Assembly (NCBI RefSeq): GCF_000026545.1
Contig: NC_011602.1
Source of the DNA: Escherichia coli O127:H6 str. E2348/69
Lineage (GTDB): Bacteria > Pseudomonadota > Gammaproteobacteria > Enterobacterales > Enterobacteriaceae
Strand: one strand, 5' to 3'
Length of the DNA: 6,147 nucleotides
The position numbers were made by a program, and so were the translations under genes. Shown here in pieces: positions 1,821 through 6,147 of this stretch. Under the pieces are notes generated by a model. That model worked only from the letters and a program-made list of their open reading frames with translations. It was not told the DNA's origin and did not search any database. Within the stretch, counting starts at the first letter, position 1; every line of letters begins with the position of its first letter.

Positions 1821-2656
1821 TGTTCATGCCGCCTGTTTTTCCTGCTCATTGGCACGTTTCGCAACCTGTTCTCATTGCGGACACCTTTTCCAGCCTCGTT
1901 TGGAAAGTTTCATTGCCAGACGGGACTCCTGCAATCGTCAAGGGATTGAAACCTATAGAAGACATTGCTGATGAACTGCGCGGGGCCGACTATCTGGTAT
2001 GGCGCAATGGGAGGGGAGCAGTCCGGTTGCTCGGTCGTGAGAACAATCTGATGTTGCTCGAATATGCCGGGGAGCGAATGCTCTCTCACATCGTTGCCGA
2101 GCACGGCGACTACCAGGCGACCGAAATTGCAGCGGAACTAATGGCGAAGCTGTATGCCGCATCTGAGGAACCCCTGCCTTCTGCCCTTCTCCCGATCCGG
2201 GATCGCTTTGCAGCTTTGTTTCAGCGGGCGCGCGATGATCAAAACGCAGGTTGTCAAACTGACTACGTCCACGCGGCGATTATAGCCGATCAAATGATGA
2301 GCAATGCCTCGGAACTGCGTGGGCTACATGGCGATCTGCATCATGAAAACATCATGTTCTCCAGTCGCGGCTGGCTGGTGATAGATCCCGTCGGTCTGGT
2401 CGGTGAAGTGGGCTTTGGCGCCGCCAATATGTTCTACGATCCGGCTGACAGAGACGACCTTTGTCTCGATCCTAGACGCATTGCACAGATGGCGGACGCA
2501 TTCTCTCGTGCGCTGGACGTCGATCCGCGTCGCCTGCTCGACCAGGCGTACGCTTATGGGTGCCTTTCCGCAGCTTGGAACGCGGATGGAGAAGAGGAGC
2601 AACGCGATCTAGCTATCGCGGCCGCGATCAAGCAGGTGCGACAGACGTCATACTAG
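1820..2656 (+). CDS. strB: Aminoglycoside 6-phosphotransferase APH(6)-Id (streptomycin resistance, StrB)
   Basis: 278-aa product starting MFMPPVFPAHWHVSQ at ATG 1820, which overlaps the strA stop by 1 bp (TGATG), suggesting translational coupling. The ORF track extends the frame to a TTG at 1811, but the canonical StrB N-terminus supports 1820. Stop TAG at 2654-2656. Confidence 0.94.
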   Translation: MFMPPVFPAHWHVSQPVLIADTFSSLVWKVSLPDGTPAIVKGLKPIEDIADELRGADYLVWRNGRGAVRLLGRENNLMLLEYAGERMLSHIVAEHGDYQATEIAAELMAKLYAASEEPLPSALLPIRDRFAALFQRARDDQNAGCQTDYVHAAIIADQMMSNASELRGLHGDLHHENIMFSSRGWLVIDPVGLVGEVGFGAANMFYDPADRDDLCLDPRRIAQMADAFSRALDVDPRRLLDQAYAYGCLSAAWNADGEEEQRDLAIAAAIKQVRQTSY

Positions 2657-3167
2657 ATATCAAGCGACTTCTCCTATCCCCTGGGAACACATCAATCTCA
2701 CCGGAGAATATCGCTGGCCAAAGCCTTAGCGTAGGATTCCGCCCCTTCCCGCAAACGACCCCAAACAGGAAACGCAGCTGAAACGGGAAGCTCAACACCC
2801 ACTGACGCATGGGTTGTTCAGGCAGTACTTCATCAACCAGCAAGGCGGCACTTTCGGCCATCCGCCGCGCCCCACAGCTCGGGCAGAAACCGCGACGCTT
2901 ACAGCTGAAAGCGACCAGGTGCTCGGCGTGGCAAGACTCGCAGCGAACCCGTAGAAAGCCATGCTCCAGCCGCCCGCATTGGAGAAATTCTTCAAATTCC
3001 CGTTGCACATAGCCCGGCAATTCCTTTCCCTGCTCTGCCATAAGCGCAGCGAATGCCGGGTAATACTCGTCAACGATCTGATAGAGAAGGGTTTGCTCGG
3101 GTCGGTGGCTCTGGTAACGACCAGTATCCCGATCCCGGCTGGCCGTCCTGGCCGCCACATGAGGCAT
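2628..3167 (-). mobile_element. IS91-family (ISCR-like) rolling-circle transposase, 5' fragment only (N-terminal zinc-binding domain; catalytic HUH/Tyr domain absent)
   Basis: The minus-strand ORF starts at ATG (complement of 3165-3167) and encodes ...RPEQTLLYQIVDEYYPAF...CGRLEHGFLRVRCESCHAEHLVAFSCKRRGFCPSCGARRMAESAALLVDEVLPEQPMRQWVLSFPFQLR, the conserved N-terminal Cys-rich zinc-binding signature of IS91/ISCR transposases. Only about 540 bp are available where a full gene needs about 1.2-1.5 kb, and the reading frame runs into the 3' end of strB, so the gene is truncated. Assignment to CR2/ISCR2, the usual partner of sul2, is an inference I could not verify. The exact point where homology ends (somewhere between 2657 and about 2800) is unknown. 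Confidence 0.7.
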
Positions 3168-3210: not shown

Positions 3211-3600
3211 TTAGCGGAAAGTTCTTTTACCCTCAGCCGAAATGCCTGCCGTTGCTAGACATTGCCAGCCAGTGCCCGTCACTCCCACTCTTACATTGTT
3301 CGCAGTATCTAGGTACATGTTATTGCGTGCACCTTCATGATGTATAATGTTATTAATGACAGCAGAAAGATCGACAGAATTAATATTCTTCGTACCTGGG
3401 ACAGTTATCGGGTGTCGGCCAGTGATGAGACCAAAGGATGCAGTATAAGATGAACCACTACTATTATCATGGCCACCATTACCACCACCGTTAAAACTAC
3501 CTCCCGAACTTCCAGAGCCGCTATGACCATCATTGTAGGGGTCATTTGGTCCCATGTGACCAAAACCACCGACAGTACCGCTATTTAACTCTGTACTCAT
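3211..3600 (-). CDS. Glycine/serine-rich 129-aa protein of unknown function; colicin-like disordered N-terminus; SOS-box promoter
   Basis: ATG at complement of 3598-3600 with a strong RBS AGAGGA (3608-3613) 7 nt upstream. Product MSTELNSGTVGGFGHMGPNDPYNDGHSGSGSSGGSFNGGGNGGHDNSSGSS... followed by about 70 less biased residues. The ORF track starts the frame 11 codons upstream (3633), but the RBS supports 3600. The coding call is supported mainly by the RBS and promoter architecture; the product class is not established. Confidence 0.55.
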   Translation of the reverse strand: MSTELNSGTVGGFGHMGPNDPYNDGHSGSGSSGGSFNGGGNGGHDNSSGSSYTASFGLITGRHPITVPGTKNINSVDLSAVINNIIHHEGARNNMYLDTANNVRVGVTGTGWQCLATAGISAEGKRTFR

Positions 3601-3636: not shown

Positions 3637-3666
3637 CTGTATTTATAACAATGTGTTTATATACAG
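3637..3666 (-). promoter_or_regulatory. Tandem overlapping LexA boxes (colicin-type SOS operator)
   Basis: The plus strand reads CTGTATTTATAACAATGTGTTTATATACAG: box 1 at 3637-3652 (CTGT-N8-CAAT, degenerate inner half) and box 2 at 3651-3666 (ATGT-N8-ACAG), overlapping by 2 bp. This resembles the overlapping dual SOS boxes of colicin operons and sits between a candidate -10 and the RBS of the glycine-rich ORF. Confidence 0.65.
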
Positions 3667-3704: not shown

Positions 3705-3817
3705 CAGGTTTTTTGTGTATTTTTCACGCCTCACGGGCAGCCTCAGACCTTTTGTGTTAAAACAGTAATATGTTCTGCTGTTACAATACGGTACACACAG
3801 GAGACACTGTCACTTTT

Positions 3818-4258
3818 ATGGCATGGCACACAGTTCAAGAGACACTGAAATTAACAGGAAAGTCGCGCTCGCAATTATATCGTGACATGGCTAAAGGCCT
3901 TGTCAGCTATCGCACAGGAAAAAATGATCGCCGGGAGTTCGAGACCAGTGAACTGATTCGGGCCTATGGCGAGCTGCGCACTTCTGAGACACCAAAAAGG
4001 CACAAGGAGGGACACTCCAAATCTGTCGTTAGCCAGGCGGAAAATGCTCAGCTAGACGTCATTCAGCAGAAACTGGACGCTCTGCAGCAGACTGTTACCC
4101 TAATGCTTGAAGACAAGATGGCGCGGGAAGCAGAAAACCGCCTGCGAAATGAGGAGAGGGAACAACTACAGGCCGAAATTAGCCGTCTGGCTGACGCGCT
4201 GGCACAGGAAAAAAAGCGGGGATTCTGGTCGCGGCTGTTTCGCTCCGGTTCAGAGTAA
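3818..4258 (+). CDS. Putative helix-turn-helix DNA-binding protein with C-terminal coiled coil (146 aa; function unknown)
   Basis: ORF with stop TAA at 4256-4258. The preferred start is ATG 3818 (MAWHTVQETLKLTGKSRSQLYRDMAKGLV...), preceded by AGGAG at 3799-3803 (14-nt spacing, longer than ideal) and an extended -10 TGtTACAAT at 3778-3787. An alternative in-frame ATG at 3770 gives 162 aa. The N-terminus looks like an AlpA/excisionase/MerR-like HTH; the C-terminal roughly 70 aa are heptad-like and rich in charged residues and Gln/Leu (...LDALQQTVTLMLEDKMAREAENRLRNEEREQLQAEISRLADALAQEKK) with a basic amphipathic tail. Confidence 0.55.
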   Translation: MAWHTVQETLKLTGKSRSQLYRDMAKGLVSYRTGKNDRREFETSELIRAYGELRTSETPKRHKEGHSKSVVSQAENAQLDVIQQKLDALQQTVTLMLEDKMAREAENRLRNEEREQLQAEISRLADALAQEKKRGFWSRLFRSGSE

Positions 4259-4852
4259 CAGTGCAGGTGACTCTGATTTACCATAACATCTGTTATCAGC
4301 ACCGCCTGAGAGGCCCTCAGGGCGTTTCTGACGGGAAACCGGTAAAACAGGCAACAAACCACCCGAAAACCCGCCAGAAACGCGCAGGCTCTGTTTTTAC
4401 GGCATGCATGAGTATGCGCACAAGTGCATAGCGCGGAAATTCACACCATTCAGCCGGGGTAAGTCCTGTTTCCGGCGTTCTTCCCATCCGAAAACGGTGA
4501 ACGGGGACGCAATTTATTGCGTGGCCGTGAAGCGTTGCCGGCGCAGCCGGAAAACCCGCTGTCAGCACGTTCAGGAAGGGGGTGATGTACAAATGGCACA
4601 GAGGATGAAAGTGACGTATGAGCTGAAGGAGCGATGTAATTCTGTAGTCAGGAAGAATAACCCGTTCATGCAGGCATGAACGATACAGTGAGGAACGCTT
4701 TTTTTGTCACGATCTCCCCTTAACCTGCGTAAATCACCCGCCATGGTTGATTATTTTTCAACCTCAAAATGGTCATACACCTAACGCAGCCGCGATTTTC
4801 ATCGCAACTGCATGAATTAAAAGAAAAAAAAGGAATATTTCGTTTTCACGAG

Positions 4853-4926
4853 TAATACCCGGGTATTAAAAATCCACTGTAATTACATGAAAATAAAGAA
4901 ATAAAAGGTAATACCGGAGTATTACC
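4853..4926. repeat. Cluster of related palindromes: TAATAC-N4-GTATTA twice, plus TGTAATTACA
   Basis: P1 at 4853-4868 is TAATACCCGGGTATTA, a perfect 16-bp palindrome. P2 at 4907-4926 is GGTAATACCGGAGTATTACC, 8-bp arms around CGGA. Both share half-sites TAATAC / GTATTA separated by 4 bp, with centres about 56 bp apart. P3 at 4878-4887 is TGTAATTACA, a perfect 10-bp palindrome in the AT-rich spacer. On the minus strand P2 is followed by TTTTATTTCTTTATTT and so may also act as an intrinsic terminator for the 4950-5099 ORF. Confidence 0.5.
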
Positions 4927-4949: not shown

Positions 4950-5099
4950 CTATAACGCTTCCCGGCCGACAGGCGACCCAAAATCCACAGGGGCATGCAG
5001 GTTCTCTTCAGTAACCTGCGCCATTAAATCAAAAAGGTCATATTCGCCGGGAAGCTGCGTATCAGTCGAATCCAGTTGTTCATCATATTCAGATGGCAT
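4950..5099 (-). CDS. Hypothetical small acidic protein (49 aa), next to bom/oriT
   Basis: Hand-translated minus-strand ORF, absent from the ORF track (probably below its length cutoff): MPSEYDEQLDSTDTQLPGEYDLFDLMAQVTEENLHAPVDFGSPVGREAL. ATG at complement of 5097-5099, stop at 4950-4952. No clear Shine-Dalgarno. The terminator-like hairpin P2 with a T-run lies 23 nt downstream. Coding status is uncertain. Confidence 0.25.
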   Translation of the reverse strand: MPSEYDEQLDSTDTQLPGEYDLFDLMAQVTEENLHAPVDFGSPVGREAL

Positions 5100-5125
5100 G
5101 GGGTGATATCCAGTAGCTGAGAGGT

Positions 5126-5200
5126 TGTTAGCGGGTTTCGGGGCGCAGCCCTGAACCAGTCATGTAGCGCTAGCGGAGTGTATACTGGCTTACTATGTTG
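5126..5200 (+). other. ColE1-type bom/oriT (basis of mobility) site
   Basis: ...CGGGGCGCAGCCCTGAACCAGTCATGTAGCGCTAGCGGAGTGTATACTGGCTTACTATG closely resembles the pBR322/ColE1 bom region as recalled (GGGGCGCAGCCATGACCCAGTCACGTAGCGATAGCGGAGTGTATACTGGCTTAACTATG). The nick is expected near the conserved TATACTGGCTTA motif (5181-5192). No cognate mob/mbe relaxase gene is present in the window. Confidence 0.6.
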
Positions 5201-5399
5201 CCACGATTGCGAAAATCAGTGAAGTGCTTCATGTGGCAGGAGAAAAAAGGCAGCACCGGCGCGTCAGCAGAATATGCGATACAGGAGATATTCCGCTTCC
5301 TCGCTCACTGACTCGCTACGCTCGGTCGTTCGGCTGCGGCGAGCGGTACCGGCTTACGGACGGGGACGGAAATTTCCTGGAAGATACCAGGAAGACACT

Positions 5400-5470
5400 T
5401 AGCAAAGAAGAGATAAGGCCACGGCGAAGCCGTTTTTCCATAGGCTCCGCCCCCCTGACAAGCATCGCAA
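5400..5470 (-). other. ColE1/p15A-type origin of replication (RNA-DNA transition region)
   Basis: AAGCCGTTTTTCCATAGGCTCCGCCCCCCTGACAAGCATC matches the conserved ori core of p15A/pMB1 replicons as recalled. It lies about 520-550 nt downstream of the inferred RNA II start, on the minus strand. Leading-strand replication is inferred to proceed leftward. Confidence 0.6.
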
Positions 5471-5955
5471 AATCTGACGCTCAAATCAGTGGTGGCGAAA
5501 CCCGACAGGACTATAAAGATCCCAGGCGTTTCCCCCTGGTAGCTCCCTCGTGCGCTCTCCTGTTCCTGCCTTTCGGTTTACCGGTGTCATTCCGCTGTTA
5601 TGGCCGCGGTTTCTCATTCCACGCCTGACACTCAGTTCCGTGAAGGCAGTTCGCTCCAAGCTGGACTGTATGCACGAACCCCCCGTTCAGTCCGACCGCT
5701 GCGCCTTGTCCGGTAACTATCAACTTGAGTCCAACCCGGAAAGACACGACAAAACGCCACTGGCAGCAGCCATTAGTAACAGGAGTGCACGAGAAGATAG
5801 ATTAAGAGGTCTTGAAGTAGAGGCCTGACTGCGGCTACACTGAAAGAACAGTTTTGGTAATGGCGGTCTCGTGAACCCTGTTACCGGGTTAAGCAGTTCC
5901 CCAACTGACTTAACCTTCGAACAAACCGCCTCCCCAGGCGGTTTTTTCGTTTACA
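5432..5955 (-). ncRNA. RNA II pre-primer transcript (approximate extent)
   Basis: Minus-strand promoter with -35 TTGAGA (complement of 5986-5991), 17-bp spacer, -10 TAATCT (complement of 5963-5968). The transcribed region is collinear with the p15A RNA II region as recalled, with many substitutions. Ends are approximate. Confidence 0.6.
5848..5947 (+). ncRNA. RNA I antisense copy-number control RNA (approximate extent)
   Basis: Plus-strand promoter with -35 TTGAAG (5812-5817), 18-bp spacer, -10 TACACT (5836-5841), and a start near ACAGTTTTGG as in ColE1 RNA I. It ends at an intrinsic terminator, CCGCC-TCCCCA-GGCGG plus T7 (5925-5947). It is antisense to the 5' end of RNA II. Confidence 0.6.
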
Positions 5956-6147
5956 GAGCAAGAGATTACGATTCATTGAAAAGGATCTCAAGAAGATCCT
6001 TTGTAGATTACTATCAATTAATCTTCCGAACATGACACCAGTCACTGTTGATTACGGTTAAACCGCTCCGTAACAGGTTTCCCTCGTATTGGTGACTTGC
6101 AGCACCAAAGAAGCAAAAAAGATAAATATATCTACTTATTGAGAGAT

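Follow-up and report, generated by a model that had tools for sequence, protein, structure and literature searches.

The small plasmid of Escherichia coli O127:H6 str. E2348/69 analysed here (contig NC_011602.1; 6,147 bp, hereafter the window) carries a replication origin that resembles p15A in its body but not in its RNA I/RNA II control region, which raises the question of what replicon it is and how its control region came to differ. The window was found to be a complete small plasmid. Plasmid p6148 (NC_011795.1) matches it over the full length, with a 1-bp indel at window position 2849 as the sole difference, and many records of 6.2 kb are 99.9% identical to it. The origin segment 5100–6147 was found with 100% identity in p9123 (NC_005324.1), pCERC1 (NC_019070.1) and plasmid spA of Shigella sonnei Ss046 (pSS046_spA, NC_009345.1, 8,401 bp), and at least 175 PLSDB records carry it with at least 99% identity. 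At the same level of identity (at least 99%), the interval 5836–5991 was present in 180 records and the control module 5747–5960 in 109 records from complete E. coli genomes.

Branger et al. 2019 (PMC6807383) named this group the 'p9123 family', equivalent to RelN_RNA type 1, and described it as replicating through RNAI/RNAII, lacking a relaxase, invariably carrying sul2 and showing a backbone diversity of 0.1%. The window belongs to it by several measures: whole-window identity to p6148 and to records of p9123 and pCERC1 size is 99.9–100%; the cargo is sul2-strA-strB, as in the p9123 family; and MOB-suite assigned the window to replicon cluster 2335, the same as the p9123 family, which it typed as mobilizable and without a relaxase. 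Nothing substantial differs between the window and this family, whose members vary only in cargo insertions, for example dfrA14 and tetA. These data make it very probable that 5140–6000 is the replication origin of the known p9123/p6148/pCERC1/S. sonnei spA family, ColE1-like and mosaic in structure. The plasmid and its replicon are already catalogued, and the replicon is an ordinary one, not an unusual one.

The features of the origin are listed in Table 1. For comparison, ColE1 was represented by NC_001371.1, on which all ColE1/pMB1 comparisons were computed; a working sequence of the pMB1 RNA I agreed with ColE1 over its first 30 nt, though not over its full length. The p15A reference was checked against a pACYC-type segment containing the cat gene, the origin and tRNA genes, taken from the Rosetta2, BL21(RP) and BL21-RIPL assemblies, and was 100% identical to it over 830 nt.

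Table 1. Features of the replication origin in the window
Feature	Position	Strand	Basis or remark
bom/oriT-like stretch with GTATACTGGCTTA nic-type motif	5140–5200		Adjoins the origin; putative function, by homology
p15A-like origin body	5165–5746	-	3' two-thirds of the RNA II pre-primer and the region beyond the replication start
RNA-to-DNA switch point (ori), approximate	5433–5437	-	Homology to the ColE1/pMB1 origin; GGAGCCTATGGAAAAAC motif
Putative RNA II pre-primer, about 520 nt, both ends approximate	5435–5954	-	Predicted from alignment
Hypervariable block with indels	5747–5811		RNA II immediately downstream of the RNA I overlap
Putative RNA I promoter: -35 TTGAAG 5812–5817, -10 TACACT 5836–5841	5812–5841	+	By homology
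RNA I, antisense copy-control RNA, about 105 nt	5848–5952	+	Rfam RF00106; fold; compensatory pairs
Stem-loop I, loop CUCGUGA (5868–5874)	5856–5885	+	Family-specific part
Stem-loop II, loop CCCC (5899–5902)	5886–5916	+	CloDF13-type module
Stem-loop III, loop CCCC (5932–5935), followed by U-run forming the RNA I terminator	5918–5949	+	Terminator scan
Putative RNA II promoter: -35 TTGAGA 5991–5986, 17-nt spacer, -10 TAATCT 5968–5963	5963–5991	-	By homology

The original prediction had recognised a ColE1-family origin with a p15A-like core, and this was borne out. The body is 92.6% identical to p15A, 92.5% to K. pneumoniae pEGKP6.5 and about 70% to ColE1. The bom/nic-like stretch aligns nearly base for base with both ColE1 and p15A, and the sequence of the ori region is conserved in the alignment with them. 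Primer and ori homology to ColE1 as a whole amounts to 74.4% over 947 nt, with the same architecture and, presumably, the same mechanism as in ColE1/pMB1. The start of RNA II was placed by alignment to the mapped +1 of ColE1 and its end was set at the ori motif, so that the transcript ends and the ori position are predicted positions. Within the body, two conserved C-runs at 5450–5455 and 5679–5684 (the latter a G-run in RNA II) are presumably the persistent-hybrid elements known from ColE1 biochemistry. In the alignment, both putative promoters coincide in position with the mapped promoters of ColE1, and the hexamers of the RNA II promoter are invariant among the window, p15A, ColE1 and CloDF13, with differences in the spacer. 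A generic sigma-70 scan of 5700–6100 returned no site over threshold for either the RNA I or the RNA II promoter, and both assignments therefore rest on homology.

By analogy with ColE1, RNA II would form a persistent hybrid near 5435, be cut by RNase H and then prime DNA polymerase I. The three stem-loops of RNA I would pair by loop–loop kissing with their complements in the nascent RNA II and prevent the primer from forming; this kissing would set both copy number and incompatibility. Both the mechanism and the part that the loops play in compatibility have been described (PMC8683028, PMC9458437). Replication through a plasmid-encoded protein instead of RNA II priming was also considered, with a 162-aa ORF at 3770–4258, or a small ORF within the origin labelled 'replication initiation protein' in some records, as the candidates. 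The 162-aa product has a sub-threshold match to NCBIfam NF038291, 'plasmid replication DNA-binding protein' (43.9 bits versus a cut-off of 85), but its gene corresponds to the homologous ColE1 gene for 'entry exclusion protein 1', to which it is 75% identical in nucleotide sequence and which the ColE1 origin is not known to need. The label 'replication initiation protein' is given in relatives to an ORF of about 50 aa within the origin, but the ORF at 5670–5828 has no Pfam match and falls within the template of RNA II. Moreover, 2.2-kb and 4-kb plasmids without the region of the 162-aa ORF, namely pF1917-10 and Enterobacter plasmids of 4,053–4,068 bp, carry this origin or a close relative of it, and the window ORFs scanned matched no Rep family. 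Protein-initiated replication is thus highly improbable, and priming by RNA II is the reading retained here; the established ColE1 model is unchallenged by these data.

RNA I is intact. The Rfam model RNAI (RF00106) matched 5849–5950 on the + strand with 73.9 bits (gathering score 47, E = 1.1e-12), and the predicted fold, at -44.3 kcal/mol, comprises three stem-loops, with a z-score of -6.6 against 200 shuffles. A terminator scan identified a terminator-like site at 5923–5944, followed by TTTCGTTT. The RNA I thus has the length of about 100–110 nt, the three stem-loops and the terminator of the ColE1 family. Across eight aligned relatives, 8 of the 27 consensus pairs were found to keep their pairing through changes on both sides, a count that is conservative in stem-loops II and III because the MAFFT alignment is not structure-aware there for the ColE1-type rows; there the Rfam alignments were relied on instead. 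One other Rfam match in the window, to drz-agam-1 at 3011–3090, scored 22.9 bits (gathering score 37, E = 0.34) and was rejected as chance.

Alignment by MAFFT showed that 5747–5920 is only 56.6% identical to p15A, as against the 92.6% of the body. Differing alignment columns numbered 74 of 175 in this block and 44 of 583 in the body (Fisher exact p = 1.6e-24). By segment, the identity to p15A is 54% at 5747–5811, 67% at 5812–5847 and 54% at 5848–5920, and the last stem-loop with the terminator (5921–5952) is fairly conserved at 84%. The many differences that the original prediction had placed at about 5843–5920 are real, but the divergent block is wider and begins at about 5747, some 100 bp further to the left. 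Within it also lie the RNA I promoter and, directly downstream of the overlap with RNA I, a stretch of RNA II rich in indels; 5747–5847 is divergent from p15A and contains a 12-nt indel. The hypervariable part of the block, 5747–5811, is 54–59% identical to p15A, ColE1 and CloDF13, 75% to pEGKP6.5 and 98.5% to an S. Choleraesuis member of the family.

For RNA I, identity was about 61–63% to p15A and 55% to ColE1, and the control region is strongly unlike either of them, as had been proposed for p15A. The window shares with p15A the body, the bom-like stretch, the RNA II promoter hexamers and the lack of rom, but not the RNA I that would place it in the p15A incompatibility group, since all three loops differ: CCUCCA, UUGGUAG and CUGCAA (loops I to III) in p15A versus CUCGUGA, CCCC and CCCC in the window. 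The loops of ColE1 are CUGCUGA, UUGGUAG and UUGGUAG. Loop I of ColE1 differs from that of the window in its two central bases, with five of the seven bases in common, whereas loops II and III of ColE1 are unrelated to CCCC.

Among the classical replicons tested, CloDF13 (loops CUGCGAA, CCCC and CCCC) has the RNA I closest to that of the window, at 83% overall. The likeness is concentrated in stem-loops II and III, which are 97% and 92% identical, whereas the tail and stem-loop I reach 64% and have a different loop. Stem-loop II is the same as in CloDF13, pSS046_spB and the Klebsiella plasmids in 30 of 31 alignment columns, the single difference lying at the junction; in stem-loop III the CCCC loop is shared with CloDF13, and one stem pair differs in a compensated way. 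CloDF13 differs from the window in loop I, in stem changes there, and in the origin body, which is only about 56% identical by global alignment. The original prediction would have been set aside had the loops proved to be those of a named replicon, and this is the case for stem-loop II and the loop of stem-loop III, which are those of CloDF13, but not for stem-loop I. Complementary GGGG loops in RNA II have been described for ColA and pCS36-4CPA (PMC5935869), and the likeness of ColA to the window is taken from that description.

Over the whole origin, the nearest relatives outside the family were K. pneumoniae pEGKP6.5 and C. freundii pF1917-10 (body about 92%, RNA I about 90%), both assigned by MOB-suite to rep_cluster_2335 as is the window. 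They differ from it in loop I, which in the Klebsiella type is CUCGUAU, unlike the CUCGUGA of the window, in two compensated stem pairs and in the spacer of the RNA II promoter. In PLSDB, the 63-nt segment of stem-loops II and III was found with at least 95% identity in 1,769 records, mostly from Klebsiella, and the 32-mer of stem-loop I (5856–5887) was found near-exact in 185 records, the 30 matches listed among them fitting the replicon type of the window; the two counts are not symmetric, as megablast with a 32-mer finds near-exact matches only. Comparison of the sequences thus marks only stem-loop I, with its loop CUCGUGA, as specific to the p9123 family, and stem-loops II and III as CloDF13-type.

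The original prediction had pictured the control region as substitutions concentrated on a p15A-like replicon. This picture did not hold: pEGKP6.5, with a body 97.1% identical to that of p15A, carries a control region of the window type (84–97% identical to the window across the RNA I segments), and its stem-loops I and II are 48–59% identical to those of p15A. A p15A-type body is thus combined with at least two unrelated control modules, which argues for module exchange rather than for piled-up substitutions. Other RNA I sequences are patchworks as well. In pSS046_spB, the RNA I promoter (97% over 36 nt) and the tail with stem-loop I (40 of 40 positions identical) match ColE1, and stem-loops II and III are 100% identical to those of the Klebsiella 5.6-kb type; in pETEC_5, a p15A-like stem-loop I is joined to ColE1-like stem-loops II and III.

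Divergence in place from a p15A-like ancestor, through many point substitutions as diversifying selection favoured a new incompatibility type, would also leave stems that keep pairing, and such pairs were seen between p15A and the window (pair 16–33 from U-A to G-U, pair 20–30 from C-G to G-C). Compensatory changes of this kind are what would be expected had RNA I and RNA II co-evolved step by step, and only a few of them separate stem-loop I of the window from its nearest relatives. However, the boundaries of the block are abrupt, with identity to p15A in 40-nt windows of at least 88% through 5725 and of 42–50% at 5765–5785; p15A and pEGKP6.5 agree closely in the body but not in stem-loops I and II; and the patchwork RNA I of pSS046_spB and pETEC_5 indicates recombination of ready-made modules. 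We therefore consider divergence in place unlikely, and the control region reads as an exchanged module and not as substitutions accumulated on a p15A ancestor. The origin is a mosaic of a body about 93% identical to p15A, CloDF13-type stem-loops II and III, and a stem-loop I of the p9123 family.

No rom/rop gene had been noticed in the window, and a tblastn search of the doubled window, for which the ColE1 and pSS046_spB Rop proteins (sharing 60% identity) served as queries, likewise gave as its best hit a 6-residue match at E = 0.39, which is noise; as positive controls, the same queries recovered ColE1 rop at 6.7e-41 and 5e-20. Unlike ColE1, the window does not encode Rop, and so is not a Rom/Rop-modulated ColE1 replicon by its own genes. 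To our knowledge p15A has no rom either, and its absence does not separate the window from p15A. Rop acts in trans, and co-resident plasmids can supply it; both of the co-resident ColE1-type plasmids described below, pSS046_spB and pETEC_5, encode Rop.

Single-base changes in a loop can suffice to alter incompatibility, as reported in PMC9458437 citing earlier work; by the same source, compatibility is graded and loop divergence alone is insufficient to predict it. The window has no loop in common with p15A and five of the seven loop-I bases in common with ColE1, and a separate specificity is therefore expected. With three loops unlike p15A, and with loops II and III and two bases of loop I unlike ColE1, its RNA I should not control primers of the p15A or ColE1/pMB1 type, and the replicon should form an incompatibility group of its own. 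Compatibility with laboratory vectors and copy number, both raised in the original prediction, we infer from the sequence; the literature consulted, which was searched for the copy number of pCERC1 as well, contained no incompatibility or copy-number experiment or measurement on a p9123-type replicon.

Natural co-residence bears on this expectation. In S. sonnei Ss046, spA resides together with pSS046_spB, a ColE1-cluster plasmid, and in E. coli E24377A, pETEC_6, which has the replicon of the window, resides together with the ColE1-like pETEC_5. Two more S. sonnei pairs of spA and spB are suggested by adjacent accessions (CP023647/CP023650 and CP109777/CP109778). Plasmid pSS046_spC was rejected as a co-resident ColE1-type plasmid, having a Rep protein and no RNA I. 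Co-residence supports compatibility with some ColE1 types, as co-occurrence in an assembly and not as a stability assay. Partially interfering high-copy plasmids can persist together, especially under selection.

Stem-loops II and III of pSS046_spB match those of the window in all but a single base, located at the foot of stem-loop III, and its stem-loop I differs in two loop bases and several stem positions (largely compensated), with one further difference in the tail. As aligned, the RNA I of the co-residents spA and spB differs essentially in stem-loop I only. The stem-loops II and III held in common with pSS046_spB and CloDF13 leave room for cross-talk.

The replicon might then cross-react with a classical group, most plausibly that of CloDF13 or of the pSS046_spB type, and not be a fully independent incompatibility group. 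Stem-loop II and the loop of stem-loop III are identical to CloDF13, RNA I is closer to CloDF13 (83%) than to p15A (61–63%), and compatibility is graded, with divergence by itself not predictive (PMC9458437). Against this, the replicon coexists in S. sonnei Ss046 with pSS046_spB, whose stem-loops II and III are the same; spA and spB are also paired, as judged by adjacent accessions, in the two further S. sonnei assemblies; and a single-base change in a loop reportedly suffices to alter incompatibility (PMC9458437). On balance, such cross-reaction appears improbable, and a separate incompatibility group remains the preferred reading.

A more general proposal, which we put forward tentatively and would not yet favour, is that the RNA I of natural ColE1-family plasmids consists of exchangeable stem-loop modules, with the specificity of the p9123 family residing in stem-loop I alone. 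If this were true, either one loop would give full orthogonality, or spA and spB would be partly cross-regulated and their copy numbers coupled, and the coupling may go further through Rop supplied by spB. That few changes suffice and that compatibility is graded are general ideas already in the literature (PMC9458437, PMC8683028); only the natural pair of spA and pSS046_spB would be new, and the RNA I mosaic together with this pair is an only mildly new angle.

The main use of these results is housekeeping, in that the window is identified as a sul2-strAB resistance plasmid that is spread worldwide and belongs to a named family. Plasmids of the p9123/pCERC1/spA type are predicted to be able to sit beside ColE1/pMB1- and p15A-type plasmids, and replicons of the CloDF13 type (pCDF) are those to check for interference. 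The mosaic patterns of RNA I illustrate how new incompatibility types may arise through the exchange of modules.

The RNA I genes of plasmids pSS046_spB (S. sonnei Ss046) and pETEC_5 (E. coli E24377A) are, judging from their sequences, patchworks. In pSS046_spB, the tail and stem-loop I were identical to those of ColE1 and the promoter was 97% identical; stem-loops II and III were of the CloDF13/Klebsiella type and were followed by a ColE1-like RNA II promoter. In pETEC_5, a p15A-like stem-loop I was found fused to ColE1-like stem-loops II and III. The RNA II template of the window also contains an ORF of about 50 amino acids, with counterparts in ColE1, pETEC_5 and a further relative (L010). 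ColE1 and other relatives have this origin ORF labelled as "replication initiation protein"; the window copy had no match in Pfam. The ORF is probably an annotation artefact which has spread among ColE1-type origins.

Coordinates of the features identified in the window and in related plasmids
Feature	Molecule	Position	Strand	Remark
IS91-family transposase remnant	window	2628-3167	-	zinc-binding domain PF14319, E=2.7e-20
Glycine-rich ORF (MSTELNSGTVGGFGHMGPNDPYNDGHSGSGSSGG...)	window	3211-3600	-	hypothetical in RefSeq
162-aa ORF	window	3770-4258	+	N-terminal helix-turn-helix look; ColE1 homology
XerC/XerD core-like GGTGCTGATAA-CAGATG-TTATGGTAAAT	window	4276-4303	-	pattern match
Near-identical palindrome pair, GTAATACCCGGGTATTA and GTAATACCGGAGTATTA[C]	window	4852-4868 and 4908-4925		non-coding
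49-aa ORF (MPSEYDEQLDSTDTQLPGEYDLFDLMAQVTEENLHAPVDFGSPVGREAL)	window	4950-5099	-	end like MazE-type antitoxin C-terminus
~50-aa ORF within RNA II template	window	5670-5828	+	annotated "hypothetical"
Counterpart of ~50-aa ORF	ColE1 (L005)	784-942
Counterpart of ~50-aa ORF	pETEC_5 (L009)	740-853
Counterpart of ~50-aa ORF	L010	1035-1193
RNA I gene	pSS046_spB (L006)	2149-2251	-
RNA I gene	pETEC_5 (L009)	908-1013	+

The 162-aa ORF has a homologue in ColE1, where the gene carries the annotation "entry exclusion protein 1" (213 bp align at 75% nucleotide identity); against the NCBIfam model NF038291, "plasmid replication DNA-binding protein", it scored 43.9 bits, below the cut-off of 85. The XerC/XerD core-like sequence agrees with the cer/psi-type core pattern, having an exact XerD half and a 6 bp spacer. 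This pattern was matched once in the window and in none of 200 shuffles, and the site probably serves for multimer resolution. ColE1 3844-3939 aligns beside it with 71% identity. The two palindromes, spaced 56 bp apart in AT-rich non-coding surroundings, might be a protein-binding site. The 49-aa ORF gave no match in Pfam and NCBIfam searches, and no evident toxin gene accompanies it in the window; it could be an antitoxin that is orphaned or truncated. According to Branger et al., all members of the p9123 family carry a "MazE" system (PMC6807383).

In sequence, the glycine-rich ORF resembles the N-terminal part of a colicin-type bacteriocin. Its promoter region shares 71% identity with ColE1 5048-5133, and LexA-box-like sequences, CTGTATTTATAACAAT and ATGTGTTTATATACAG, are located upstream at 3637-3666; Pfam and NCBIfam profile searches with the ORF found no match. 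It appears to be truncated by the resistance insertion. Between it and strB sits the IS91-family remnant, within which falls the sole 1-bp difference between the window and p6148 (position 2849). In the sul2-strA-strB segment known from the p9123 family, this remnant forms the delta-ISVsa3/CR2 end (PMC6807383).

A pACYC/pRARE-type segment with cat, a p15A origin and rare-codon tRNA genes, bordered by an IS and by prophage lysis genes, is located in the "chromosome" record of Rosetta2-DE3 (NZ_CP083274.1, 4451413-4455242), and the BL21(RP) and BL21-RIPL assemblies likewise have a plasmid segment in the chromosome record; either the plasmid has integrated there or the arrangement is an artefact of assembly. 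The window-type control module was embedded in large plasmids, e.g. NZ_CP019262.1 (149,653 bp) and NZ_CP058344.1 (94,776 bp), and in one case a large plasmid contained the entire window. Therefore, p9123-type plasmids occur also as cointegrates, as recorded for one family member (PMC6807383).
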